64,000 bases of DNA from Bugula neritina. Taxonomy: Eukaryota > Animalia > Bryozoa. Below are positions 392-43,439 of the stretch, piece by piece. The position numbers and the translations under genes were made by a program. Numbering within the stretch: the stretch's first letter is position 1; every line of letters begins with the position of its first letter. The stretch is from assembly GCA_964035545.1 (NCBI GenBank), contig OZ037770.1, positions 8,748,973 to 8,812,972 of the forward strand. The letters run 5' to 3'. The notes beneath the pieces were generated by a model. The model was not told the origin of the DNA. It ran no database searches and worked only from the letters and a program-made list of their open reading frames with translations.

Positions 392-1321
392 CTGCTCTAT
401 GATCAGTTTCTGTCATGTATTTTTGAATGAGAGAACCCATACTCCGTATACCACAGTGCTCGGCAATCTCAACTGGCTTCAAATGGTTAACATTTTTCAA
501 TTCTAGTATTGCCTTTTGATCTCTTAAAGACAAGATCTTTAGCAAACACTCCATTTTGTCCACTTCATCGGTATAAGCCACACTGTGCACTGGCGAATTT
601 GTAAAAGTTCTAACTTGTTTTCTGGTGATATCCTGCGGTTTATCATATTCATGAGCTCTGTAAAAAGACCACTGGAGCTGACATTTAGTGCAAGGTGCAC
701 TACAGTCTGTCCAAGATTGTTTTGAGTTGCCAACAGAGGACAAAGTATTTCCGATGGATGCTCATCCATAAATGTTTTTAAAACTTTAGTGCTGCCTCTT
801 TGTATGGCAACATGGAGCAAAGTATTACCTGCATGGCATTTGGCATTGTAGAGGTTAGTAAACTGCTTTTCCATGATAAAGTTGATGAAGAGCTTTAAAA
901 CTTCTGATCTGTTGTAGTGAGCTGCGAAATGCAAAGGTGTATACCCAGAATAATTTTGGCTTCCTAAAAGTTCACGCATGTCTTCTGGTGGTAATAAGTC
1001 AATTATCTTCTGCAGTGTGTCAACCTTTGTATAAACAGTTGCCCAGTGTACCGGCGTGTTTCTCTCTCTATTCTGAGCCTTTAGCAGCTGATGTCTCATG
1101 TCACGATCCAAACAGAGTAAAATAGTAGACATTGTGTCTTCTTTTGACTTTTCTGCGGCTCTGTGTGCAGCTGAAGCACCTTCCTCATCTTGGGCAGTCA
1201 GTAGCTCCAGCTTCTGCTGCTGAGAAAGAGGGTCTAGTAATCTGTTTATAGCGTGTAGATCTTCCTCCATAACAGCCTTATACAAAACACTCTTGTCATT
1301 GGTAGACATGACAGCGGACAC
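392..1321 (-). pseudogene. Ankyrin-repeat protein exon with a frameshift near 590-600 (pseudogene or sequence error); gene probably continues beyond this exon
   Basis: ORF 539..1321 has about six repeats of the type LLxxQ(N/D)xxG(N/Y)TP(V/L)HxA. The pattern resumes in another frame (PVHSVAYTDEVDKMECLL...NHLKPVEIA, ORF 291..743). Acceptor-like TTAG|G near 1322 and donor AG|GTAAAA near 391. Confidence 0.75.
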
Positions 1322-1716
1322 CTAACTACTAGTTTCAATCTTCTTATGTCAGTGTGATAGCATTGTGTGAAATTGGGCAAATTCCTTGCTACATCTTATA
1401 TTGATTGTATTATTGATTTATTAATTCAAGCGAGTAATCAATCTGAAAACTGTTTTCTTTTTATCCTTGAATAAATTTCTCAATATCACTCTCAAAGTAT
1501 TTTGCTAATTATGTGAGACTATAATTTCTTTAGCCTTATTTTTTAAACAAATAATTGCTTTGTTTGCTGGAAAAAAGAGTCTTAACCAGTATTAGATTAA
1601 CTCACTATACAAATATGAACAGCAATTCTATGCAACATTATATATGCATTAGGTTTGAATTGAAACTGCATAATAGAAACTATATAAACAATATAGTTTT
1701 ACAAATAAGGCCATAT

Positions 1717-2119
1717 TGTAGTGAATTTTGCCAGTTCACTATTATTATGTGTGGGTCTACTTAAACAAAGCCATTGCACCAGGTTGCTAAGATAACTTTA
1801 TTATTTACACAAATACAAGAAGGTTATTTACTGCTAGCATGAATAGAAAACGATTACATAATTAGTGAGCTTTAATACACAACTACTCTAAATGAAGTCC
1901 CAAGCTGCTCTGCCGGCTAAATACTCAGCACACTGCAACTACGAGTAGCTAGCTCCACCTGCTATCAATTAGTGTGACTGTCCTGATTGGTGGTTACTAG
2001 TGGTGCCACTGCTGTCCGTAGCTACAATCCGACAGGGTCGAACTCACAATATAATAAACAATATAGAGTGAACCTTTTCGATTAATACAATAATAATTGC
2101 ACTACTAAAATCCATCACA
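1717..2119 (-). repeat. 3' LTR (403 bp)
   Basis: Direct repeat of 9205-9613 with 5 substitutions and one 6-bp indel by manual alignment. Minus strand reads TGTGATGG...CACTACA and contains AATAAA. Confidence 0.97.
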
Positions 2120-2130
2120 CTCTCCTCACC
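2120..2130 (-). promoter_or_regulatory. Polypurine tract
   Basis: GGTGAGGAGAG immediately precedes the TG of the 3' LTR on the minus strand. Confidence 0.85.
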
Positions 2131-2370
2131 TATCGAAAAGTACTCTCTATACTTAATATTTACATGACAGTAACACACGAATAATGATTAAAATAACATA
2201 GGTTTTTACAAAACTAGAGGTACACACCTGAACAAGAGAAAAATATATACAGGGTAAATAATATAAGTATAATAACACGAGTCTTCACGCCGTAGTCCAT
2301 AACACCTATTTACATTACTTGACTAGCCCGAATGGGGGGGGGGGTACGTGTGTAGGTGGCCGCACTTCTA

Positions 2371-3579
2371 TCACTTCTTCGCCAGCCGTTTCTCTAGTCG
2401 GGTCTGCAACTTAGCCAGCTCGGTGGCCGCTCGCTTCTGTTCCTTACTGAGGCGGGCCATACGCCGTTGCACTTTCCTAATGTCAGTTAGTAGGGACTGG
2501 TCAGGGTCGCTGTCATCTCGGGGTGTGTTGCTAGCACCCCTCTTCTTCTTGTGGGTGTGTCGGGGCACATAGGAGATCGTCGTCGTCGGGGGTTGTGAGT
2601 CCTTAGTTACAGCGCGTCCAGTACGGGTTACTATGACGCGTAGAGGTCGAGTGGTTACGTCTGGAGGGTAGGTTGTCGTTGTCTCAGAGGGTTGAGGGTC
2701 TGCATCAGAGTCACTCTCTACTGTAGGTCGGGTAGCGGGAAGTGGTCTAGGAGAGTCTGTCGTCGGTCTGGGTCGGTCACGTGAGGTAGTATCAGATCCC
2801 TGAACTCAGTGTAGGAGTCCGCGTCAACTTCATATAAGTGTCCAATGTAGCAATCTCGAGTCCGTTGATGTCGTAGTATAGTGTCCCTGCAGAAGTGGTG
2901 GACTCCGCAGGGACAGAAAGTCACAGTAAAAGGTTGGGGGACATGTATTTTAAGTCTCTTGGTAGTGGATAGTGTTCGTCTACACTCAGTACATTGTCTA
3001 TTATCGTCTGACCCTACTAGTGCTTGAATCAGCGTACGAGTCCGTCGAGTCGTCCAGTTAGTCCGTTCGAGTAAGGCTTGTGGCAGTGCTAAAGTATTGT
3101 CATTGGCTACAGTCAAGTCGGTTATGTCCATCTGCATCGCAGTGTGTCGGTCGGTGTTTGTCGGGGAGTCCGTAAGCGTCGATAAGTGTATGTCGGACAG
3201 CATGTCTACCCCTGCTTCTGACATGCTGTCCCAGTTAGTCGTAGGTGTGTCAAGTAATGCCTGTATCTCGTCAGATACAGGCTCAGTCTCACCTGCAATA
3301 GAGTATTCAAATTCATGTGTTATTTGAATTATACTCTATGCGTGGGACTCCCGTTCCAAACGATATTGATAATCGAGTCTCACAGTCTGTCACTCACTGA
3401 TCGTATAATCAGCTGAGTCGACCGTCCCACTCTAACTATCAAATATTGTCTGATGTCAGGAGTTTCAACTTTATAATTATGATAAAGTGAGACTGCTGTC
3501 GCTACCAGAGTAAATTCTAATTAATTATTATAGAATTTCTAGTAGACTTACCCCCCAAAACAGTTGCTGCATTAGACAT
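2371..3579 (-). CDS. Retrotransposon accessory ORF3: spliced zinc-finger / basic / coiled-coil protein (~316 aa; exon 1 3579-3552, intron 3551-3293, exon 2 3292-2371; one 1-nt frameshift at ~2738)
   Basis: ATG TCT AAT GCA GCA ACT GTT TTG GGG G|GTAAGT ... TATTGCAG|GT GAG ACT joins in phase with ORF 2718..3224. That ORF contains CTEC-x12-H and CPCG...RHQRTRDC. Adding one C at 2737-2739 links it to ORF 2371..2568 (HKKKR; heptad-rich LLTDIRKVQRRMARLSKEQKRAATELAKLQTRLEKRL). Confidence 0.7.
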
Positions 3580-3820
3580 AATGATGCTGTTGTTTTCTTA
3601 GGGCTCGTAGATAGCCAAATTGTTTACTGCAAAAGACGTGCTGCCTGTTTGCTAGCTGTAATTGAAAAGAGCGCTCACAGCTAGAGTGCTTATGTAACAC
3701 CCTATACGCTGTTGAGTTGGCTACGCTCTGCTGACCCCCGGCTGACCTATTCAATCCGCCACTGGGTCGCCTGTTATCAATTACCTCGCTCCCCCAGACT
3801 TCTTTGTGAATGTCGCCATG

Positions 3821-6800
3821 CTACAGAATACTGTGCATGTCGACCAAGTCACACAAGAAGTCTTTCAAATAAGATGGTGGCGCCCTGGTACGTTGGCTAC
3901 GGTCCAACGGTACCGGGGAGTTTGCTGCGACTGGTGACTCTTCCACCACGGGTGGTGTCGCCAGTACGGGGGGGTCCACCAGTACGGGTGGCCCTCCCCC
4001 AGCTGCCTCTCCCTCATTATTTTGAGGAATTTCCATCTCATCCGGAACGATGGGCCTGTCGACCGGCTCCACAGGTGGTGGGGCCGGCTCTGACAGGTCT
4101 TCAGGTGTGTCGGCCTCCTCTTCCTGGGGTGGAGGAGGCTGGGGCTGGTCGGCCGACGCATCAGCCGCCCCGTCCTGGTTTGGCAGTATCTCCTCAATCT
4201 CTCGATACGCCATGGGTCGCCCCCTCATAGAAGGGCGCCTAGCTGGCTCTAAGAGAGGAGGTGCTTGACCTGCCGCATCAGGATTTGCCCAGTGAGGTTT
4301 TAGCCGTGCCACGTTCTGAATCGACACTTGTCCAGACCATTCCACTTTGTAGGTATGGTTTGGCATTACCTCAATTACGCAGTAGGGACCTACGAACTTC
4401 GGCTGCAACTTGGCTGCCTGTCCGCGCCTGCGGCGATGACTGGTCATCCAGACCCAGTCCCCCACCTTGTATAAAGGTGGGTCGTCAGAGTCACCACTTC
4501 TGACCTGCCACTGCTGCTCACATAGCACCTCGTGAGCCGTCCCCATGCGTTTTACGAGCTTGTCCACGTAGTCGTGGACATTGCTCTCGGGAGTCGGAAC
4601 ATGATAGGTTACGTGCTCAGGAACCCTGGTTTCTCTCCCCAGCATGAGAAAATTAGGGGTCTCCAGTGTACTGGAGTGAGGGGTACTACGGTACGCTCGC
4701 ATGATCTGCGGCAACACCAAGTCCCACTCTTTCTGGCTCCTACCGATAAGCAGGCTTCTCAGAGAGTCCCCTAGCATTCGGTTGTTCCGCTCCACAACCC
4801 CGTTCCCTTGCGGGTGATACGGGGTCGTCCGACTCTGGTTTACCCCCCACACTTTACAGAGATCGCTCATGAGTTGCGACTGAAACTGGGCGCCTTGGTC
4901 AGAGTGTATCTGCTCCGGCAAGCCGAAATAGCAGAACACCTGCTGATCCAAGGCTCTGGCCACCGAGGGGGCCGACGCATCTGGAATAGCCAGTGCATCG
5001 GCCCACCGCGTGAAATGGTCAGTTAATACCAGTATCCAGTTATTACCTCTCGCTGTTGTGGGCATGGGCCCTACCAGATCGACAGCAACCACCTGCCACG
5101 GACGACCGGCATGGAGGCGACGCCTCCCTGCGGTCTCAGTGGGGCGGCCATGCTTGCTAGCTTGGCACACCTCGCACTTCCGCGCCCGGAGTCGGACATC
5201 CCGGGTCATACCGGGCCAAAACCACTGGAGTTGAAGACACCTAGTCACCCGGCTAGCTCCTGCGTGAGCTTGCTTATGGGTGTCCCAGATCAACTCCCGC
5301 CTCAGAGCTGACGGGCAGACTACCCTCTCTCGTTCACTGCGATTGGTGCCGGCTGCCAACGTGATCGTTAGCAGCCCATCGCTGTTGAACCTGAGGGAGT
5401 CCCAGCGGTCACAGAAGTACTTAAACTCAGTACTCTTCACTCGCTGTTCGGCCTCACTCGGCCGCCGTCCCTCCTTCTTGGCCCGGACTAGGTCAGCTAC
5501 CACTCCTGGTAGCGTAGCCTGGAGCCGACATAGCTCCCTGACGTTCCGAAGCAACGTTGGGTTTGCGTGAAGGTTGTTAACAGCTTTGTTAGGAGATTCG
5601 GACAGGAGTTGCCCTTCTTCCCAGCTGTACACACCCGCTTTCCCCAACTGCGCTTCGACGTCCGAGCGAGGGGGTCCACCGTCCCTGCGCTCGATATTCT
5701 GGCACTGCTTACACCATCTGCCTGGCGGCGGCTGAGTCCATCTGCATTACCGTGTTTCTTACCGGGTCGATGCTCGATCCGATAAGAAAACTCTGCCAGG
5801 ATCTCTAGCCAGCGCGCTACTTGGCTTGATGGTTCTGCTCGTCGACACAGCCATATCAGGGACGCATGATCCGTCCGAAGCCGGAATGTGCGCCCATATA
5901 GATATGGTCTAAAGTGTTTGACCGCCTTGACTACTGCCAAGAGTTCCCTCCTGGTTGTACAGTAGTTCTTCTCAGGCGCCGACAGGGCCTTGCTATAGTA
6001 AGCCACCACCACCTCGCGACCATCTTGGACCTGCGATAGCACAGCCCCCACATTATGGTTACTGGCATCAGTATCCAAAATATACTCCTTCGCAGGGTCA
6101 GGATACGCCAAGATGGGTGCTTCCACCAGGCGATCCTTCAGGTGGTCAAATGCCTTCTGCTCAGCCTGCGTCCACTGCCATCACACCCCCTTTGCGGTCA
6201 GCCGATTTAACGGCTGTGAAATTCCGGCGAAGTCTGGTATGTACTGACGATAGTACCCTACCAGCCCCAGGAATGCCCGCAATTCAGAGAAGTCGACAGA
6301 GACGGCCCAGTCCCTCACAGCCCGTACCTTCTCGGGGTCGGTGGCGACCCAGTCTCGACCAACTACATGGCCCAGGTACTTAACCTCGCGTTGCAGTAAT
6401 GCACACTTCGAGGGCTTTAGCTTCAAGCTCGCAGCTCGGAGTCTGTCGAACACCTCCCTGAGTTGACTGACATGTGTGTCGAAGTCGGGGGAGATGACGA
6501 TGACATCATCGAGATAGATGAGCAAGGTATTCCAGTGCAGTCCACTCAGGACCTGCTCCATGAGTCGCTGGAAGGTGGCTGGTGCGGACGTAAGTCCGAA
6601 TGGCAACACCTTCCATTTCCAGAGCCCATCCCGCGTTATAAACGCGGCCTTGTCCTGTGCTTCAGGACTCAGGGGCACCTGCCAATACCCGCTTAGCAAG
6701 TCCAACAGGCTGAAGAACTTGCTACCAGCTAAGGCATCGAGCGACTCATCGATCCTCGGGAGAGGGTAAGCGTCCTGGATGGTCACGCTGTTCAGCCTGC

Positions 6801-8325
6801 GATAGTCAACGCAAAACCTCCAGCTACCACCCTTTTTCCGAACCAGGACGACTGGAGAACTCCAGGCCCCATGGCCTGGCTCAATCAGGTCCCGGTTCAG
6901 AAGGTCTTGCACCTGACGGCTCACTTCTCTCTCCTTCTCAGGACCTAACCGGCGGGTCGGCTGCCGAATCGGCGCCGTCCCCGCCGCCAGGGGTATCTCA
7001 TGACAGACAGTCTTAGTCAGACCCATGTCATGGTCGCCGCAACTAAACACGTCCTTGTACTCAGAGAGTAGCCGCGCCATCACCAGGCGTTCTCGCTTGC
7101 TCTCACAGCCATCACAGGCATCCTCGTACAACTCTGCTACGTGTTCAGGCACCGGCCCCCTGCCGTCTCTAGTGGGTACTCCCCGGGCGTCGTCCGCTGT
7201 TTCCAGCGCGGGCCCTACATCCTCCTCTTGCACGGAGTGGAACTTCCCTACTAGAGACCCAGCCGGTAATTCTACCGGCTCCGTGAAAGGGTTTACGCAC
7301 TGAACCAGGAACTCCCCCCGCTCATCCAGCCTATTCAGACTGTTAGCGAGCTGGACGCCCCCCAGTGCACCTTCCACCACTCTGAGCTCGGAGATTTCCC
7401 TACAGTTCACTCTGCAGCGAACTGTAGCCCGGGAGCGCCCAGGTACAGTACAGCGCTGTACCACCTGCACTCCCCCCACCAAGGGTCGGCCAAATCGGTC
7501 GACACAGGCCAGCTCACGCCCCGCCATCACTACTGCCGACTTGCTAAAGTCTATGTAGCACCTGTGTCGTTTCAGAAATGGCATGCCCAAGATGGCATCC
7601 TCCTTGAGTTGACTGACAATGAAGGTCTCACTGATCGTCTGATCACGGACTCTACCAGTCAACTGGATTACCCGTTAGAAAGGAATACACGACCCGTCCG
7701 CCAACGTGCCGTGCTCCCCTTCATATGGTTCTAGGCTAGCCCTGTCCCTGGCACTGAGAGTGTCGAATAGACGTCGACTCAGTAGATTTGTGGTGCACCC
7801 AGTATCCAACAGGAATGTGACAGCTTTGCCAGCAAGTTTGCCGGGGAGGAAATAGCTGCTTCCATATGGCTGAGCGCTCACTGAGCGATTTGTCTCTTGA
7901 GGCGACACCTCATGTGCATGGAGTTGGGGATGCACCTGTGCTTTTCGGTTGCGAGGGGGTCGTCGATGTTGCATGGGCGGGCAGGGTACGTCTCGGTCTC
8001 GCTCACACACGGGCGGCCGAGTGAATTCTCGGACTGATGCTCGTGTGGGCAACCGAGGAAAATCCCTGTTGTGCTCCCACTCGTCGTTCACTCCCTCATC
8101 AAGCAAACCTTCAAAGCGGTTTTTGAGTGCCCAAGCCGGAGGTATTGGTGGGCCTTGCGGCCTACTCACTCTCCTTGGGGCTTGCCACTCTGGCGAAGGC
8201 GGCCTCCTCACCCGGTGGGGTGTGGGCCGTAGCCTCTGCCTTGGGGGGTTAAACTGGGGCCCACGGTAGGCGGAAGTTACCGTGGGCCGTCGCTGTTTAA
8301 CCGCCTCCCACTGCCGCGGAGGCAA
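3821..8325 (-). pseudogene. pol: Gypsy pol polyprotein (protease, RT, RNase H, integrase), disrupted
   Basis: Protease FLLDTG; RT WRFCVDYRRLN, PFGL, YLDD; RNase H LDTDAS, RTDH, NADGLSR; integrase HHCC, VDL/SDQG/VVER (DDE) and GPY. In-frame stops at 7675-7677 and 6181-6183, frameshift at ~5713. No chromodomain; Pro-rich tail. Confidence 0.95.
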
Positions 8326-9149
8326 CTTCGTATGAAGTGCCCACCACTACCACAGCCCTAGCATACGGGGCCGCGCCTGTCGTCGACAGCTACCGACGAC
8401 CTCCTGGGTCTCTCGGCTGTCGCCTGCTGGCGCAGTTGCCTGATCTCGGCTAGCAGTTCTCGAATCAAGCTCTTGGTCAAGCTAGTAGATTCGTCTGCTG
8501 CTGCCGCTGCGACCTGTACAGCTGTCTTCGCCGGCGACGTCGACACGTCGTCTGCCCCGACCTGCTGTACTGTCGCACCAGGTCGACCTGCAATGTCGGC
8601 TTGGAAATAGGCATTCCAAAGCCTTAGAGCTCTCTCCATAGTCTCAACTTCAGCCACCAGCAGATGCTGTTTCAGACCGAGGTTGTTAATAGACTGGAGG
8701 AATGCATCCAGTGCTAGGCTCTGTCGACTGTCGGCAGGCAAGTCGCTGTAAGCAACTTGTGCCAGTCGTTCGACTGCGGTAGCATGCTCTCGCAGATTGG
8801 TCTTAGGATTTCTCCTAAGACTCTGCAGTTGCACGCGAGCATCTCGAGCGGTTAATCCAAACCGAGCTCGTAGTGCTTCAAATATGTCACCGACATTCTG
8901 GCTTATCCCATAGGGTTTAGCCGGCCCTGTCAGACATAACCGCAGCTAGATCAGAGTAACCCTATTCGGCCATCCGCAGATGTCCGCCACATCACTAAAC
9001 TCAGTGATGAATTGCTCCACATCCTCTTCCCCTAAGAAGATGGGAGCCCGCAAGTGGTACCTGTCCATAGGCAGCGCTGGGCCGCCTATGTGATCCTCCT
9101 CTACTGCTGCTGGCTCCTGTCTGGGCGCGTCGACGACTTCGTCGGCCAT
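8277..9149 (-). pseudogene. gag: Gypsy gag with CCHC zinc knuckle, two premature stops
   Basis: ORFs 8946..9149 and 8358..8834 are in one frame, separated by TAG. Reading through the 8358 TAG gives C*GCGSGGHFIRSC (Cx2Cx4Hx4C, likely TGG>TAG) ending at GPR*. Confidence 0.9.
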
Positions 9150-9183
9150 CTTACTCCCTGGCTAGGGGCATTTGTATTAAGTG

Positions 9184-9203
9184 GAATCCCACTGCTGCCA
9201 CCA
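9184..9203 (-). promoter_or_regulatory. Primer-binding site complementary to the 3' end of tRNA-Leu
   Basis: Minus strand TGGTGGCAGCAGTGGGATTC lies one nt after the 5' LTR. The plus strand GAATCCCACTGCTGCCA-CCA resembles the eukaryotic tRNA-Leu(AAG/TAG) 3' end. Confidence 0.85.
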
Positions 9204-9204
9204 G

Positions 9205-9613
9205 TGTAGTGAATTTTGCCAGTTCACTATTATTATGTGTGGGTCTACTTAAACAAAGCCACTGCACCAGGTTGTTTACGCTAAGATAACTTTATTATTT
9301 ACACAAATACAAGAAGGTTATTTACTGCTAGCATGAATAGAAAACGATTACATAATTAGTGAGCTTTAATACACAACTACTCTAAATGAAGTCCCAAGCT
9401 GCTCTGCCGGCTAGCTACTCAGCGCACTGCAACTACGAGTAGCTAGCTCCACCTGCTATCAATTAGTGTGACTGTCCTGATTGGTGGTTACTAGTGGTGC
9501 CACTGCTGTCCATAGCTACAATCCGACAGGGTCGAACTCACAATATAATAAACAATATAGAGTGAACCTTTTCGATTAATACAATAATAATTGCACTACT
9601 AAAATCCATCACA
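9205..9613 (-). repeat. 5' LTR (409 bp)
   Basis: Direct repeat of 1717-2119, adjacent to the PBS. Confidence 0.97.
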
Positions 9614-12600
9614 CTATTATAGTGCAACAGACATGTTCATAACACAAACTAATTCAAACAATTGAACTGTGATTCTTATATCAAGTTCTGTACTTGCAAT
9701 TTTTGAAAATTACAGAAGTATTTGCTGTAAAGCATATGGGAATTTGGTTTGTATTAAATTTGCTTTTACATCCAGATGTATTAGTGTACACTGAATATAT
9801 ATGCAAGCAATTCTGGCAATTGATCATTGCATAATAATTCTAGGTTGCAAGAGTCTATAAAAACACGTACATGACATGAGTCCAATTCACTCTCTACTCC
9901 ATATAACTTACTAACAAATCATAGTTATATTAGGATAATTTTTGCTACTTTAGTACAATTAGTGTCTGCATTAGAGAATCTCAGGTACATTCGAAAAAGC
10001 ACTACATTATCCCAAAGGCTCCGCCCACCTATTACTTGTTAGTCACAATTTACTTTGAGAGGTAATTTCATAGATACAGAACATTTCTAAAAAAATTTTT
10101 TAAATATATTAAATCTAAATTACTCAAGTAATTGCATATTTAAAATTTCATAATGCATCCTTGAAAGTTGGCCAATCCCCATATATTTACCCCCTTTAAA
10201 GCGAGAACCTCCAGATACAAAGTTACTAGCAGATTTGCAATCTTTAGAATGTTGAATTTGCAGTGATATGTAGCATATAGCAACGAAGGTTAGTATTGAT
10301 GTGCTCCCCCCCCCCCCTTGTATGTTGGCAACCAGACTATATACCAAATACATTCCCACGGATTACTAGCATAGTTATAATAACTGTGACCTATAGCTTA
10401 GCAGTTGTTTGTTGTTATATGCACTATAATAATATTTGTCATTTTTATGTAGCTTCGTTAGAGGATTATAGTATATACTACAAAATGGTAGTTATATTAC
10501 AAATTGTCTATAAATATATTACAAATAATAGAGATAGATTACACAGACTATAAAAAGAACTAAAAATATCGTAAAAAAATTTGTAAATATTTTACAATGA
10601 TTGTAACTACATTACAAAGACCATAGCTTATATACCTACTATACAAAGGATATATAAATGTATGCTACATGCAATGACTATCAATATGGCATTGTTTCTG
10701 TTCATGTGTATACTAATGTGCTTTTTTATGAGGTTTTGTTAAAAATACATTAGTACTAATCTAAAGTAAACTTTATTTAACTTAGACTATATTCACAAGT
10801 AGTTTAAAAAGCAGTAAGCAAATGTGGATTATGTAATATACCGTTGTTTAACAAACATGTAATATGGCAAATAACAGAAATAGTGCTAAACAAAGAGACA
10901 TTAGCTATCTGACAGAGCAGCTAAAAAAATTGTTAAAAATGTAGAGATGATTCACAAAAAATGAATTATCGTAGCTATATAGTGTTTATAATAAAAAAGA
11001 GAATTCAGATTATGAAATTCAAAATAATATACCAATATGATGCCACATGAAAGAAAATTACTTGAAGAGATTCTAAAGCAGTTTTTTTAGCCTACAAAGT
11101 AAGAGCAAGAAAAACAATTTTAGTTTTGTAATGCTAAAATATTGAAAAAAGGTGCCAGTTTAAGGTTTTTATAGACTGTTACTAGTTTACAACATATACA
11201 ACTGTTTTATTCGACTAGATCTACAATGCGGCAACTACTCACAGAAAACTGAGTGTACAGAAGGAACTTTCAAATATTTGGCTACAGAATTAATCGGGAT
11301 ACACAGCTTTCGCCCTTAAAATGTTACTCAGCGCTGTAAAAAAAACTCATAAAATATATGATGTTGATATTTTCTTATCAGCCATTTTTACAAATGTCTG
11401 AGCTTCCTGTATGGCATTGTAGTATGTTAGAACCTTAAGCACTGGTTGGTTAAAAAACGTTGTGGCAGACTCCCATTAGACAAACAGACTTTTGTGTTAA
11501 TTCATTGGATATAATTGATCAATGAAATGTCATAGATCATACTTAATAGCGAACTTTGAAAACTTCAGCTCGGACACATTAAAACGGCTGGTATTTTATA
11601 TTACGACTTATGATATGGCAAGTGTGAATGAGGGGTTATTTAAAAACGTATGCCATAAATGTGATGCTTATAAAAATTAGGAAAAAATAAAAGTGCTTTG
11701 GCAAACTGCCAACTATATTATCCTTCTCATTTGTTTAGGGATAATTCTTTCTTCTTTTCAATTATTCAAGCTACCTTTTATTATTTATTTTATGTGTGTT
11801 CCACTGCACCTATAATAGGTGCGCTGCTTCAGCATAGTAAGAGTTGTCTTCTCTAGAGTCAAGCTGCAAAGGAAAGATAACTACATTTGTATGTAAGGGA
11901 ACAACAAGCCTATTTTAAAGGTCCTCTAAATAAAACTCATGTTTTAACTAAAGGATATAAGCAGCTTATTTTAAACTCTTCTTTATGACATAACAGAGCT
12001 TCATGCTGTTAGATCAGCTGCTATAATAGCAAAACTTTAATAACGAATGACTGCTGCTTTCAAATATAATAATTCATGAATAAAGTAGTTGTAGGCTATA
12101 TCGTTATCTACTATAATTTCACACTAAAGATTAAAATACTTCTATTTTCTCATATATCATATTTTGTATAATAATTGGGCTTTTTAAAAGTTTTCTACAG
12201 CAAAAAGGTAGATGTTACCATACAAGTTCTGTTGACCTCACCTATTGCATATTAAAAATAGGTCATTAAGCACAGAACCAAATTATTATTTATTTTTTCA
12301 ATTATTTTCTATTTTTGTAGACATCTTATAATCTCAACGTTGTTCTCATGAGTGAAATTAATGCAATCAACCTAGTATAAACCTCTCATACATTACTGAC
12401 TTTTCATGCAGTCGCACGGATTTGTTCAATTTATACTCAGCCTATAAAAACCATGCATACTGAAGTAACTCATCCTTGCTTTTTCATTAATAGTCTTCAT
12501 AGTATAAAAATTGCATTACACAGCAATTCGACCCTTCATTTTGTGAATTAATGTAAATAAGATAACAGGAAATATCAGCATTCAAGAGGGCTAATCAAAA

Positions 12601-15150
12601 GAAAGGAATGTAATTTATACACCTTACTGATTCATTGAGCTTGAATAGAAGGCACTAGATATGCACAATACAGCAAGGGCGTGACTGCAGTGACTGCTAT
12701 TAATCTTTACAATTCCAGTTGAAAGGATCTATGGAGCAGCTAATATAAACTGCGTCATGTGCTACAATCAGATACCCTCACCGTGACCTGAAACAGAGAA
12801 AGGTGTTTATAAGACAGTTGTCAAGCCATCAAATACATAACCAATTGATTGGTGCGCTGTTTGATTTTCCAAATATATTGGTTTTGAATGAGTGTTCAAC
12901 AACACATTCTTGCTAGTAACTATTGGTGCATAAGAGACTTTAATACATATGCTAATACATGTACACATGTATGCAGAGATAATAAAATGAACTTTTAACC
13001 CAATTGACTGCTGAATTAGTGTTTAGTGTTGGGGCCGGAAGAATTAAATTTGTCTTTAACTTGACAGAAGTTTTAATTTTTAGATTAATTATCATATGCA
13101 ATGAAACATTTCAAAACAATGTATTCAACTTTTACAATCTAGTATAATTTTGCATAATAAAAAAGGTATTGACACGGCTTAAAATATTTGTAGAAAAAGC
13201 TTTGCTTATTTATCATGACCACTAATTAGTTGTTTTATGAAGAGGACCTCCCACTATAATAATTAATTGAAACTTTACTTCTCATTCTAGAAGAAATAGA
13301 GCACTTTAAAATGTCATGTATGTATTCATGTGTGCGTGTTTTTGAGTGAACAAATTTAATATATTATTAGAGCATCTGACCACTTATATAGCTTTCTATT
13401 TACATATCAGTTAGTGTTCTTCGATTTTATGCCTATTTTTTCGATTGGTATTAACTTCAACTACGTGAAAAGAGCTCCACCTACTGTAGATATGTTTATA
13501 ATTTTATAAGACCTGGTATTATTTAAAGTTTCACTCTCAGTGGTGTGAGTTGTTGCAATTATTACTATATTATTTATGAAAACTTAAAAACTTTGTTTGT
13601 GAAATTGTGGTTATAATGGGTAATGAATTTGTGGGTATTAGAAACATGCTTTTATTTTTCAAAAGATATATAGCGCATTCTATCAACACTGATGAGCGTT
13701 GTCAGCCTGCACTAGTTTGCAACTGCTTCTCTGGAAGTTTTCTCTTCAAGCAGCTTAAAAAGTGTCATAGTTCAACTTTTAGCATTTACACACTTGAGAG
13801 GTTTTAACACCTAAAATAGTATTATGGGACATTAGGAGTCAATGCCTCTATTTGAGTCTTCCACATGGTTGACTCAAGTTTGTTTACATAGTATGAAAAT
13901 CAAATAAATTAAATTAAAACAGTGTTTCTTACTATATAGCACTATAATTTGCAAATATATTGATAGATTGCAATAACAACTATTGTTATCGATTTAAACG
14001 TTTGGTATTATAATATCATATGACCAGCAATTGACCCTTACTTAATATGAATTGTAGCTATAGTGGCAATGAATGCATGCTCACTAAACAATCTTTGATA
14101 CAATTAGTAATGCGAGGCATTTGCTATCATTATTTACGATATGTATACATCATCTATATATGTTCATATTGATAAAAAATATTATTCAACAAGCATAAAT
14201 TTTAACTGCAATCACATTGAACTAGAAATAAGTTTATTTGACTAAACACTTATAATTTATAGTAACTATACATAAATATTCTAGTAGAAATAAGTGAATG
14301 AATATTTAATAAAATAATGTATATAAAGTATATCAAACATAAAAATATCTAGCCAAGGAATATTTTGCTAAGCTCTACAAAATTCGATTAAGGGTTTAGG
14401 GCAACTTTGCATCAAGTTTTAGGAGTTTTGCAATTTACTAATGTGGAGGATTTATTATATTATAGAGTATAAAACAATTTTCCATGCATGCTTATATAAC
14501 CACTTATAACTAGCATAAAATTTATTAATGATTATTTAAAATTATTATAGCTAATCATTAACATTGGTTGGTTGCTTTAATGATTAATTTTCACTATGTT
14601 AAAATGCTAGTCATAAATATGGTTTTAATAAATAAGTTATATCATTTTTTCTAGTACATGTAGCATAGTTAAGAAATTTAAATTTGTGATGTAGCTATAA
14701 CTAGATTTGTGTAAGCTTATTGTTAAATAATTCATACCTTTAATACGTCAACATATTTTAACTATAGAAACTTAGGAGCCTATATGCATTAGTCATCAAC
14801 TTTCATTGGCTGAAAATAAGTTTCTATTTTTAGCTGACCAGTAGAAATCAGCTATGCTGCTATAGTTCAATGAGTCCAAGTGCACAATTATGCTGTGTAA
14901 TAATGAAGCTGCCCACGCAGTACAACGATAGGTTAATGGCAGTTGTTTATGAATGAAAAGAGCACCTTCAGTGCGTTGTCAACAGTAGTGTCCAACCGTA
15001 GTGACACCTGTAGCAATATAGTATTATTCAGTTACTTAGCACAACTTGTAGAAGTCACTTGCTAATCTATACAGGGAAAGTCTCTTACAAGTAAACTCAA
15101 AAGGTTTAATAAGTTTAACCGAAAAAAAGAAAGATCCCAGGTACTATAAG

Positions 15151-15951
15151 ATGTACCTGTTTCATACTACTGTACTATTGCTAGCTATAGCAAATAGGAT
15201 ATCTGCTCTACAAACCTACATGGTTATAACTCGAGTAAAGACTCAGAAGATAGACCCAGCTTCCTGTTTACCGGAATATTCCAACAGCTCCTCAGACAAG
15301 TTTACTAACTTTAACAGAGACATTTGTGACTCTCTCTCACACTCAATTTCCAGTTCACCGTCTGTAGTATCAATATCAGGCTGTCTAGTAGAAAGTGTTT
15401 TGTGCCAGGACAATCTGCCTTTAGTCTCTACTAGGATAGATATAACAGGAAGTGAGCTAACAGCTAATGAATTGCATCATTCCTTCGATCTACACACACT
15501 AATCAAAGAAACAGCAATCACTATAGACTATCTTCAAGTGAAAGACTTTAATGAGTGTAAAAGTGGTACCCACAACTGTGACATTTCGGCAGCATGCAGA
15601 AATACAGCTGGCAGCTATACTTGCACCTGTAAGCAAGGTTATACAGACAAGTCTAGTGAACACTACCTGGATGCAGGTAGAGTTTGTAATATTAACTGCG
15701 GAGCTACTTCCTGTGCCAATAATGGAGTCTGTTTATTAGCGGAGGACCAGCATGTTTGCAAATGTTTAGATAATTATGAAGGACCGACGTGTGAAGTAAT
15801 GAAAGGGGGTGAAGAGTGGATTTGGATCCTTAGCATTACTCTAGCTGTGGCTACCTTCGTCTTCTTATCTTTAGGAGTGCTGGCTGTTGTGTTTATTCGA
15901 AACAGAAGAGCTAGGAGGAAGAAACTGGACCAGATGCTTTTGTATAATTAG
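15151..15951 (+). CDS. Intronless type-I membrane protein: signal peptide, SEA-like region, calcium-binding EGF, EGF, TM helix, basic tail (266 aa)
   Basis: N-terminal hydrophobic MYLFHTTVLLLAIA; DFNECKSGTHNCDISAACRNTAGSYTCTC (cbEGF consensus); CANNGVC...CKC...YEGPTC (EGF); TM WIWILSITLAVATFVFLSLGVLAVVFI then RNRRARRKK. The SEA call is tentative. Confidence 0.85.
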   Translation: MYLFHTTVLLLAIANRISALQTYMVITRVKTQKIDPASCLPEYSNSSSDKFTNFNRDICDSLSHSISSSPSVVSISGCLVESVLCQDNLPLVSTRIDITGSELTANELHHSFDLHTLIKETAITIDYLQVKDFNECKSGTHNCDISAACRNTAGSYTCTCKQGYTDKSSEHYLDAGRVCNINCGATSCANNGVCLLAEDQHVCKCLDNYEGPTCEVMKGGEEWIWILSITLAVATFVFLSLGVLAVVFIRNRRARRKKLDQMLLYN

Positions 15952-26377: not shown

Positions 26378-29435
<3,058 letters not shown>

Positions 29436-32261
29436 GCTCAGCTTCTCCAATCATTGCTTACTAAGAGCTGGGGCTATGCACCGACAAGCTTCAATGTTCA
29501 AACAACATGCGACTATTCTTCTAATTTATACACATATTTCTAGCTTTTATAGACCCTCTGTTTCCAGCTTGTTATGTACTGCAGTAGTCTAATATGACAG
29601 ATTCAGAATAAGTTTCTCAGCCTGGAAATGGTGCTTGCAGTCAACTGTCAATGTTCTCACTTTAACTACTCCTAGAAAATATCATACTACTTGCTCTCTA
29701 TATATTACACTAGTTGATGTCATGAACTTTGAACTTAATTAATTAGCTGCCAGTTATCATACTACAAGTGACCTTTCTTCTCCACTCCTCAAATTGGTGG
29801 GTTGAAAAGATATTATGTTGGTTTAAGCATGGCTTGTTAATTTATACTTGTAAGGGTTCTGATTGCAAAGATCAAATGTATGTGAAGTTGTTAACAATTT
29901 TATACAAATTAAGATTTCTGGGAAACGTTCTGCCTGGTTAATCAATTTATCACATTGTATTATTCTCTTGTAACAAAATATAATATAACTACTCTTTATC
30001 ATCTTATTGTCTTGTTTATTCTTTAAATTTACTGCGGTTCTATTATTTCCATGGATGCTCCTACGGATGAATTTGTGGTTACAGTTAGCGTGAACTTACG
30101 GTTGTGGTGTCATTCGGTGCAACTGTTTTCTAACATTAATGTTGTTCAGTATTGCAAGTGAAAAGTTTTAAATTATCTAGAAGTTCATTTCCATAAAAAA
30201 ACTGCAAGTTCAAGTGTAAAAATGATTTATTAATCATTTTAAAATAGCTGGAGCATGCTATATCTTGCTGCAAAGGGATAGTCCTAAAATAATATGCTTG
30301 TAGAATCATGGAAATCTTGCTATTTACAATTATCTAATACAGTGTAGGAGTTGTGCTCCCTGGAATCATTCATAATGCATGAGGCAAACAACTGGCAATT
30401 ACTCAATAGTCACACATTGGCAGCATGTACGTATAATGCTTTGAGGTTACTCGTAATAGAGAAAGTCATATTTGCAAAGGCTAGCAACTGTGCAATAAAC
30501 TAGCACTTGCCTACTCTTTTGTACACAGTACACTGAGAGTACAACTCCTACTTCAAATCAGTTTTATCGAAATGCTCTACAGCATAATATCAATAAAGGT
30601 GACTGTTGCACAAAATAACAAACAACAACATATTTTATACACAATATATATTATTAAGGCAGACAAATCCCCCTCCCCGCAATGTGATAAACATTATTGC
30701 AGATTATTATTATTTTCAACCTAATGTGTGCACTCAGTATGGGACGAACACATTGTTATAATCAAATCTATTAACTATGGTGATGATAAATGACAATGCA
30801 CATTATTATAATCTTTCAACAAGTTGGTACAGCTTTTGACTATAAACTCATGGTATTACAGTATGTGCGTGCATTGCTGTAGTACGTGAGCTATAGTGTG
30901 TGTAGCCTATAGTGCTGTAGTGTGCTATATATACATGCAGTGCATGCATATAACATAGTGTACCTCAGTACATGCATGTGTATGAAGTGTAGTAGTTCAC
31001 ATCATGCTGTGGTGTACTCTAGTGTGTATATGTAGTGCTGAGTGAGTGACTACGTAGATACCATGTACTATAGTGTTTCAATCAGTACATGTTACTGGGG
31101 GAAACTTTCTCTTACATTGAAACTAATATGCTAAAAAGTGATCTGATAGTGATTAATTGCACTGCATTTTATATATTATACACTATACAACATAATACAT
31201 TATAAGTTGAAACAACATATGTGTGACTCAAAAGCATTTAGATATGTGATAAACCCTTTATAACTATAGCAACAAGTAAAGTGGGCAGTTTTGACAACAA
31301 ACTTTGGTATGCATGAAACTTCCACCTTCAATAATAATTTATAACAAGGTAATAATAATATCACAATGTATTACTATAATAATAGGACTAGTTTATATAT
31401 TTTTTGTTTATAATTCACATGGCTACCCTGTGAGTCTTTCTCATTTTCAGTATTTACAAAAGTGTCGAAAATACAAACATTATTTGAGTCGTTTTCAAAA
31501 CAAACCTTTATTGATTTTTAGGTCAAACAATGTTGTCAAGTACAACTGCTAAGACACATCTATGAATAAGGTGATTCTATTATAAACTTTTAAGAGGCTA
31601 TTTAAACAGAACTTAGAAAAATACTTGACATAAATAATCATTGTTTGATATGTCAATATAGCATACAAGGAGATTGGAGAATATATTACTCTGTCATAAG
31701 TGGTGTGTTTGAATACAATATTATCTTACAGCTAGTTTTAAATTCAAGTTATCAGTTTATTTATAATACATGCAGTACAGTACAGTCAGCTCTGAGAATA
31801 GATGGCAATACAAAGTAAGTTAGAACAGTTCGATTATTTTTCTTATAGTTAAGCTACTTATAACTATAGTTTACTTTTTGGGAGAATCGCCTATATTTTT
31901 TTATATTATGCTAATTTAGCTTTGTACTTTTCCATATAGACTAATCATAGTTACAATATGTAATATAGGGTAAGCAACAATATGCTGATAAAATAAATGT
32001 GTCCAGGATTGTTGATGGACTTTTTATGACACTCAATTTTCTTATCGGTATTTAGTGTCTACAGGAATTAACTTTGGGATTAATTGGAGCCTAAATAAAG
32101 ATCATAATTATATGCTACATTTTTTCCAATGTTCACTTTGATTGTGAGAAATTGTAATATTTAGGTTAATGCTGGAGCATGTTTTTCTCACAGAGCTAGT
32201 GACTTATATAAACTTAGTACAAGAGGTTTAAATAGTATAGCATACCTGTAGTATATATATA

Positions 32262-32518
<257 letters not shown>

Positions 32519-32870
32519 AGTATATGGAGATATAGTACAGCATATGTGTAGTGTAGGTATATGCTATAGCATATACACTAATGATGTATGTTTCAACCAT
32601 GCAGAATGTTTCGATGTAGATTGTGATATATTTGACTGGGAGGAACATGTTATTTACTTGTTGGGTACTTTGTTTTAGTAGTTTCGATACCGATTTTCAC
32701 TTTTCAATAACTTTACAATTCAGAAGCTTTACCAAACTGCCTCTTGACAGTGGAGCATATTATTCTAGGCTGTGCTGTGTAGCTATGCAGTTGATGAAAT
32801 GTGCAACAGTTTCTGTGTATTTTGAAGGCAAGTTGCAGATTAGCAATACCTGAAGATTAATTACAAAATA

Positions 32871-36500: not shown

Positions 36501-43439
<6,939 letters not shown>

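Follow-up and report, generated by a model that had tools for sequence, protein, structure and literature searches.

We find that a Ty3/Gypsy retrotransposon of the bryozoan Bugula neritina carries a third gene behind pol, here called ORF3, that is assembled from two coding exons and encodes a protein with two zinc sites, and we are highly confident that this gene is real and spliced. The element lies on the minus strand of the window (the whole 64,000-nucleotide stretch of DNA analysed), as do all of its features given below. ORF3 begins with a coding exon of only 28 nt, nine codons and one base (3552..3579), followed by a GT-AG intron of 259 nt with 36% G+C and a predicted multi-branched fold (3293..3551) and by a second coding exon (2371..3292) with its stop at 2373-2371 and, judged against homologues, one frame break near 2735-2740. 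As proposed in the initial annotation of this locus, the donor GT begins at 3551, the acceptor's AG has its last base at 3293, and the two exons are in matching phase; read without splicing, exon 1 yields a peptide of 20 residues. The two exons together span 950 nt, in agreement with the protein of about 316 amino acids predicted after repair of one frame break. The two zinc motifs, basic patch and terminal helix described for this protein are all present. Its N-terminus is polar by inspection, and the reported lack of a membrane segment was upheld by a best 19-residue hydropathy window of at most 1.0 in 7 out of 7 homologues tested. The last histidine of finger 1, suspected of being altered in the window copy, indeed departs from the family, in which the fourth ligand is histidine in 114 of 119 aligned rows. 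Among the matches listed in the Pfam, Foldseek and VIA-align comparisons, none pointed to a likeness of ORF3 to fusion proteins.

The exon junction itself is found in protein records. Four records from three clusters join exon 1 directly to exon 2 at the predicted junction (P0004, P0083, P0081 and P0185, the last two forming one cluster of a more distant subfamily), and all four begin with the exon 1 peptide or a similar one. Since four independent database records carry it, the junction is, at the level of protein sequence, more than a chance pattern. This comparison covers only proteins whose N-terminus reaches the junction, the remaining records starting downstream. Eight records (seven clusters) read the tail of the intron in frame, and in all eight this tail ends in [I/V]-A-G, which is the acceptor read as protein; in P0069, the upstream part is unrelated. 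Conservation begins 23 residues upstream of the first methionine of exon 2, and that methionine is missing in P0024, P0044 and P0081. Two of the junction records come from contigs that measure 3170 and 3196 nt, exceeding the expected spliced ORF3 message, and all four are damaged, so that they are plausibly reverse-transcribed spliced copies and may represent intron-less DNA copies of the element. Whether they stem from RNA or from intron-less DNA, the junction was spliced. The premise that an intron survives in such an element only through unspliced genomic RNA thus needs correction, given that the intron may be lost and the junction records may be intron-less copies. Among 763 aligned contigs of four sequencing runs, an exact skip of 3293-3551 was seen in none of 8 joints. 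One contig of run X1 aligns with exon 2 up to 3293 and then with pol from 3828, with other sequence in between; another run contig aligns with both intron ends and not with the middle, and several cease to align at 3303-3307, a few bases inside the intron, while their records continue. The middle of the intron (3358-3383) was without cover in runs X3 and X4 at 80% likeness, a coverage gap that by itself is no evidence. No RNA run was listed as containing the element, a result from which nothing follows about its expression.

A search whose query was the initial 191 residues of exon 2 returned 36 close homologues with 55-87% identity among 821 candidates. At least 12 of these 36 span both the finger and the terminal helix, and 28 of the 31 that reach the region of the frame break stay in frame there. 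Identity to record P0001 is highest on the zinc core (0.81-0.88) and lowest in the linker (0.20), the homologues have open frames of about 280 amino acids, and their indels are in frame. In the sequencing runs X1, X3 and X4, many diverged contigs cover pol, the spacer, the intron ends and exon 2; in metagenome contigs, viral contigs and prokaryote genomes, no DNA locus of any relative was found. Together with the junction in four records, these homologues show ORF3 to be, as first proposed, a third gene of this element family that is conserved, spliced and not env. The outcomes named at the outset as telling against this proposal, namely relatives that lack the segment or do not conserve its frame or splice site, and a local insertion unique to this locus, did not occur: the gene is a family trait.

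The same data bear on whether ORF3 serves the element at all. It could instead be a host zinc-finger gene that the element has picked up and carries along without benefit to itself, or the splice pattern could be a chance feature of non-coding DNA. Bryozoan gene models do contain the domain, and one of these models is the sister of the window family (SH-aLRT 92); the window copy is broken. Moreover, a codon-position test on the listed ORF3 variants failed its control: 9 of 13 variants fell at third positions and 8 of 13 were synonymous (0.31 expected, p 0.02), with 4 of 12 at third positions in the integrase and 7 of 15 in the spacer. Because the integrase control failed, we set this test aside and let the case for selection rest on the protein level. 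There, open frames of this length at this identity, the conservation peak on the zinc core against the weakly conserved linker and the in-frame indels all speak against a passenger or a chance pattern, as do the occurrence of the junction in two subfamilies and the tie of the domain to integrase tails in distant families. We consider this explanation very improbable.

The 7.9-kb element that carries the gene contains LTRs, a primer site, gag, pol, ORF3 and a polypurine tract, and it is a Ty3/Gypsy retrotransposon: the two LTRs, the primer site, the polypurine tract and the order of the pol domains are all present. The 5' LTR (9205..9613, TG...CA) aligns to the 3' LTR (1717..2119) with 397 matches, 5 mismatches and one 6-nt gap. 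The primer binding site (9186..9203), which we take to be of the tRNA-Leu type, begins with TGG one base past the LTR, and the polypurine tract occupies 2120..2134. A CCHC knuckle marks gag (8277..9149), which contains two premature stops and gave no significant Pfam match. ORFs and Pfam place protease, reverse transcriptase, RNase H, integrase and an SH3-like tail in pol (3821..8346), interrupted by stops and a frame change; the protease match was slightly below the cut-off, and those of reverse transcriptase, of RNase H and of integrase were above it. Premature stops in gag-pol lie at 8946, 8358, 7675 and 6181, and the frame of pol changes near 5710-5750. Compared with each other for a target-site duplication, the 4-nt flanks of the element agree at 3 of 4 positions. 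The host genome around it is AT-rich. The window holds no second copy of the element, and no Rfam family was found in 1600-9800. The entire element is decayed, so that the window copy preserves a family trait in fossil form.

Other features were seen in the same window. An ORF with ankyrin repeats (539-1321, minus strand) starts downstream of the 3' LTR, at a distance of about 400 nt and in the same orientation, and the element may have inserted into its promoter or 5' intron, where it could drive or disturb this ORF. A 299-codon open frame (15052-15951, minus strand), apparently intronless, looks like that of a secreted or membrane protein, its translation combining EGF-like cysteine repeats with a membrane segment and a basic tail. 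Tandem arrays occupy 26710-27700 (about 40 units of 23 nt) and 29050-29340 (units of 9 to 15 nt), and long simple repeats lie near 32200-32700 and 41500-42250.

ORF3 follows the pol stop and is unreadable from the genomic RNA; we therefore infer that it needs a subgenomic RNA. Two routes to such an RNA are conceivable: transcription could start internally in the spacer between the pol stop and ORF3 (3580..3820), a candidate internal promoter or 5' UTR exon, or the message could be spliced from the 5' leader, from a donor-like GT site that overlaps the gag start (9149..9154, a candidate first donor) at 9154 to an acceptor-like site at 3656 or 3627. Two acceptor-like sites upstream of ORF3 had been noted before; both are present, and their exact positions are refined here, with the AGs ending at 3656 and 3627. 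One contig of run X3 retains the site at 3627 while the bases that follow it differ. The spacer is covered at 3629-3763 by contigs of runs X1, X3 and X4. A bZIP-type motif common to the LTR and the spacer was rejected: it matches the window 59 times, where chance alone would give 64 matches.

This layout depends on where pol ends. An open stretch of 82 codons (3572-3820, minus strand) continues in frame after the integrase stop and overlaps the ORF3 start codon, so the stop at 3821 could be premature and the stretch coding. Single-base indels occur within the stretch in other copies (at 3590, 3754, 3790 and 3802 in contigs of X1, X3 and X4), and they disfavour this reading. None of five integrase relatives reaches into the stretch beyond 3821, and none of the variants listed changes 3821-3823. 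We provisionally take the integrase stop at 3821 to be real.

The ORF3 protein centres on a core of about 120 residues with two zinc sites (2736..3092), delimited by alignment and a structure model, in which the alignment places finger 1 at 2993-2931 and the second zinc site at 2915-2850. The ligand pattern is C-x2-C-x12-H-x3-H followed by C-x-C-x12-H; these seven ligands are kept in 110-118 of 114-119 filled rows, and the eighth is cysteine in 64 of 102 rows. With a 119-row alignment, the 128-residue core of P0014 was modelled as one domain (pLDDT 95, pTM 0.87), and the model of full-length ORF3 was poor (pLDDT 52). No Pfam family covers the core, and only 1 of 58 proteins scanned reached the zf-C2H2 cut-off. 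Foldseek gave no match at E 0.001 in the PDB or among viral models, and a profile search matched single C2H2 fingers of solved proteins. In VIA-align, residues ~30-81 of the core overlay tandem C2H2 pairs of DNA-binding proteins (50-57 residues aligned, 2.3-2.8 A) with a best Z of 3.7; no Z reached 5, so neither a new nor a known fold is thereby shown. The protein-atlas clusters of these proteins are unnamed or generic C2H2 with few shared features.

Around the core, relatives reveal a hydrophobic motif in the acidic N-terminal region (3183..3209), which by its pattern could be read as an export signal or as an activation motif. A basic patch (2539..2553) is a candidate nuclear localisation signal and has been retained across the family even though conservation is lowest in the block around it. 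The C-terminus forms a long helix, a predicted coiled coil (2374..2499; pLDDT 91-98 on residues 241-283 of P0001). The flanks of distant clusters are similar: an acidic excess lies upstream of the core in 47 of 64, a simple custom score finds a coiled coil in 38 of 53 (3.2 expected from shuffles), and a basic patch is present in 32 of 53. Across distant clusters, this architecture would fit that of a transcription factor.

The zinc domain reaches far beyond the window family. An exhaustive search yielded 141 clusters at 50% identity, three of which are unrelated repeats; 106 of the 138 new records (clusters) cover most of the core, often flanked by an acidic N-terminus and a coiled coil. The named relatives are bryozoan (Watersipora subatra and Bugula neritina). 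The zinc core is present in three bryozoan gene models, two of which have it twice in tandem, often with a terminal coiled coil: P0042/P0188 (XP_067940964.1, XP_067940963.1), P0189 (KAF6040923.1) and P0194 (KAF6037488.1). These models are candidates for domesticated copies of the element gene or for its source. The tree that places one of them as sister to the window family was built with a quick method from 116 rows and 136 columns, with the close family thinned and cluster duplicates dropped, and was midpoint-rooted; it gives no direction of transfer between host and element.

In 4 of 97 distant records (P0121, P0130, P0132 and P0156), the core lies in frame, in a single open frame, 70-420 residues past an integrase-tail motif, against 0.01 expected from shuffles; the motif, which also ends the integrase of the window element, was chosen after those four records had been inspected. 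The four fall in three places of the tree, and their single-polyprotein layout resembles that of Cer1. One distant record includes a piece resembling the protease-RT spacer, and together these records extend the link between the domain and Gypsy elements past the window family. Such fusions would fit a role as an integration guide, in which the domain, fused to the integrase tail or acting as its partner, would read chromatin or DNA and tether the integrase, as chromodomains do in chromoviruses. In the window family, however, the gene is separate and has its own start exon, and a tether needs neither an acidic N-terminus nor a rationing intron. No relative was found among proteins of 1300-3710 amino acids, which is weak evidence in the same direction. 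We regard an integration guide as improbable.

The intron of ORF3 is predicted to fold strongly. The segment 3580-3280 has a folding energy of -96.8 kcal/mol (z -6.07), and none of 100 shuffles was equally stable. With z -6.8, the intron tile is the lowest of 31 tiles along the element, and set beside the next five it scores -6.3 against their -4.2 to -5.2; the 28 host tiles have a mean z of -0.6, none below -3.9. The opposite strand of the intron reaches z -5.3, and nearly all gag-pol tiles (3811-9249, minus strand) also beat their shuffles, with z mostly -2 to -5. Predicted RNA order on a genome scale thus spans gag-pol and ends at the third gene; the LTRs and most of ORF3 exon 2 are not over-structured. 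In the fold model, a hairpin past the donor leads into a long rod; a second hairpin spans the pyrimidine stretch, and the acceptor lies in an 11-bp helix, in which an intronic 11-mer (3485..3495) is the predicted partner of the 3' splice site (3294-3284). Across three contexts at 37 C, the pairs of the acceptor helix have probabilities of 0.47-1.0; in the two longer of these contexts, cooling to 20 C lets a helix from exon 2 replace the intronic one, with the splice site still covered. An 11-mer complementary to the splice site arose in 1 of 5000 shuffled introns, a post hoc test. Among the 40 of 72 differences that were listed, there were 11 intron substitutions, of which 7 lie in loops, 2 keep a pair and 2 break one, so that 9 of 11 are compatible with the structure against 6.1 expected (p 0.04), and no compensatory double change was seen in the intron. 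One contig of run X4 retains the 11-mer with one change and, by eye, pairing still possible. Overall, the modelling suggests that the structure of the intron is probably functional.

We propose, tentatively and with somewhat less than an even chance for the mechanism as a whole, that ORF3 encodes a nuclear activator that binds DNA or chromatin and is expressed through a self-masking intron. With its two zinc fingers, acidic region and coiled coil, the protein would enter the nucleus, bind DNA or chromatin and, once bound, activate or de-silence the element. The intron would fold over its own acceptor and leave most genome-length RNA unspliced. With the acceptor masked by a helix, splicing would be slow, the protein would be rationed and the intron would be kept in most packaged RNA, so that it is replicated along with the genome; now and then a spliced RNA would be reverse-transcribed, giving rise to an intron-less copy. 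A DNA or chromatin binder would fit because of the geometry of the tandem fingers, the acidic N-terminus, the basic patch, the coiled coil, the versions in host genes and the integrase fusions. Against it stands the weak structural likeness to tandem C2H2 fingers noted above, and C2H2 fingers also bind RNA and proteins. Residues at the likely recognition positions are common to very distant families, a pattern more in keeping with a host target common to all of them than with binding of each family to its own LTR; we found no target site of the ORF3 protein.

The same gene could instead work by feedback in the manner of Rev or of CERV, the protein of the nematode element Cer1. A protein made from fully spliced RNA would then bind the folded intron and license the export or retention of intron-bearing genome RNA. 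The short first coding exon, followed by an intron of about 260 nt that folds strongly and covers its acceptor, has the form expected of such a switch. Two-exon coding is also found in retroviral activators and therefore does not discriminate between the two readings. A pattern resembling an export signal occurs in 19 of 24 close relatives, which are kin and not independent, beside the basic patch; in distant relatives, however, it is not enriched (9 of 20 against 7.4 expected and 13 of 49 against 17.6 expected). An animal Gypsy precedent is available in CERV, a nuclear protein described as made by splicing, as containing a Cys finger, a basic signal and a leucine zipper, and as needed for the export of genomic RNA (PMC10309623). 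By contrast, the four distant integrase-tail records leave no room for such an intron, though Cer1 shares their layout, and the tandem-domain bryozoan gene models are hard to fit with an export adaptor; both kinds of record are easier to fit with a reader of DNA or chromatin. We favour the DNA- or chromatin-binding activator over an RNA exporter of this kind, which we consider rather unlikely. In its fullest form, the export reading would mean that a large Gypsy radiation of marine invertebrates evolved a complete feedback switch independently of Rev and CERV, with a protein of two zinc sites that is made only after removal of an acceptor-folding intron and then binds this intron and keeps and exports the genome-length RNA, its domain being present in a hundred clusters and taken into bryozoan host genes; this we hold to be more doubtful still.

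An LTR retrotransposon is commonly held to need no more than gag and pol, and a third ORF is in most cases classed as env. The element family described here keeps a spliced, putative regulator of nuclear type with an unnamed, confidently modelled zinc domain, and the same domain occurs in about 100 other clusters, some behind an integrase and some in host gene models. ORF3 thereby adds to the case that retrotransposons have, on more than one occasion, evolved regulatory genes in the style of retroviruses, and an intron that hides its own acceptor would be a testable explanation for the persistence of introns in elements copied through RNA. The two leading mechanisms, the activator and the RNA exporter, predict opposites, with binding to DNA in one case and to RNA in the other.

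In the literature searched, we found no paper on the ORF3 zinc domain or on third ORFs of bryozoan Gypsy elements; a catalogue mention is possible, as Repbase and GyDB were outside the scope of the search. The kind of gene is already known from CERV, and no precedent for the zinc domain, the gene's own micro-exon or the self-masking intron was found in the literature searched. Capture of ORFs behind pol has been noted in review (PMC6431247). Bdelloid rotifer LTR elements carry non-env third ORFs that encode GDSL esterases, DEDDy exonucleases, and membrane or coiled-coil proteins, and these share with the window gene a sense-strand position in the env slot of an animal Gypsy-like element (PMC5408684); the words 'zinc' and 'intron' are absent from the main text of that paper. 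The premise that third ORFs in Metaviridae are typically env-like consequently needs correction, given the published non-env third ORFs of rotifers (PMC5408684) and CERV (PMC10309623). In the Tor elements of Oikopleura, the third ORF is reported to be expressed either by splicing out of a donor close to where gag begins or with the help of an internal promoter located behind pol, two routes that are also open to ORF3; the Tor product is a membrane glycoprotein, whereas ORF3 is without a membrane segment (PMC4402516). The additional ORFs of Grande (gene23), Retand and Boty in plants and fungi are antisense (PMC7264820), unlike ORF3, which lies on the strand of pol. As for the protein, the CX2CX12HX3H spacing of finger 1, seen in the family and without the fourth ligand in the window copy, is that of Kaiso, ZBTB20, SALL4 and CTCF, and the two sites overlay finger pairs. 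Unlike classical tandem C2H2 proteins, ORF3 has a second site of the form CxC-x12-H-x(n)-C/H and lacks a TGEKP linker, and additional strands and helices enclose the two sites. The core gave no match with predicted viral structures.

Complex retroviruses encode small nuclear regulators from spliced RNA near the 3' end, including Rec/Rem, Tat, Tax and the foamy virus Tas. ORF3 differs from these in that its element is an invertebrate retrotransposon without env and its protein has another fold. With Rev, as outlined in the paper on CERV, it shares a predicted small nuclear protein, spliced RNA near the 3' end and a short first coding exon, and the predicted fold of its intron would correspond to the structured intron RNA of that system (PMC10309623). 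The closest counterpart is CERV itself, encoded by the Ty3/Gypsy element Cer1 of Caenorhabditis elegans as a spliced nuclear Cys-finger protein from a post-pol ORF and needed for genomic RNA export (PMC10309623). It has 517 amino acids encoded in five exons, three of them shared with gag, and contains a C4-type loop along with ring-forming and G-protein-like domains; the paper describes it as being without homologues outside nematodes (PMC10309623). Like CERV, ORF3 of the window is a post-pol, non-env ORF made by splicing. Unlike CERV, its junction records start at the exon behind pol, with no N-terminal coding exons shared with gag. Compared by description only, ORF3 is further set apart from CERV, with its C4-type M domain and its G domain, by its own 28-nt first exon, a protein of about 316 amino acids, a core of about 120 residues that combines a C2H2 finger with a CxC-H-C/H site, and the predicted fold of its intron.
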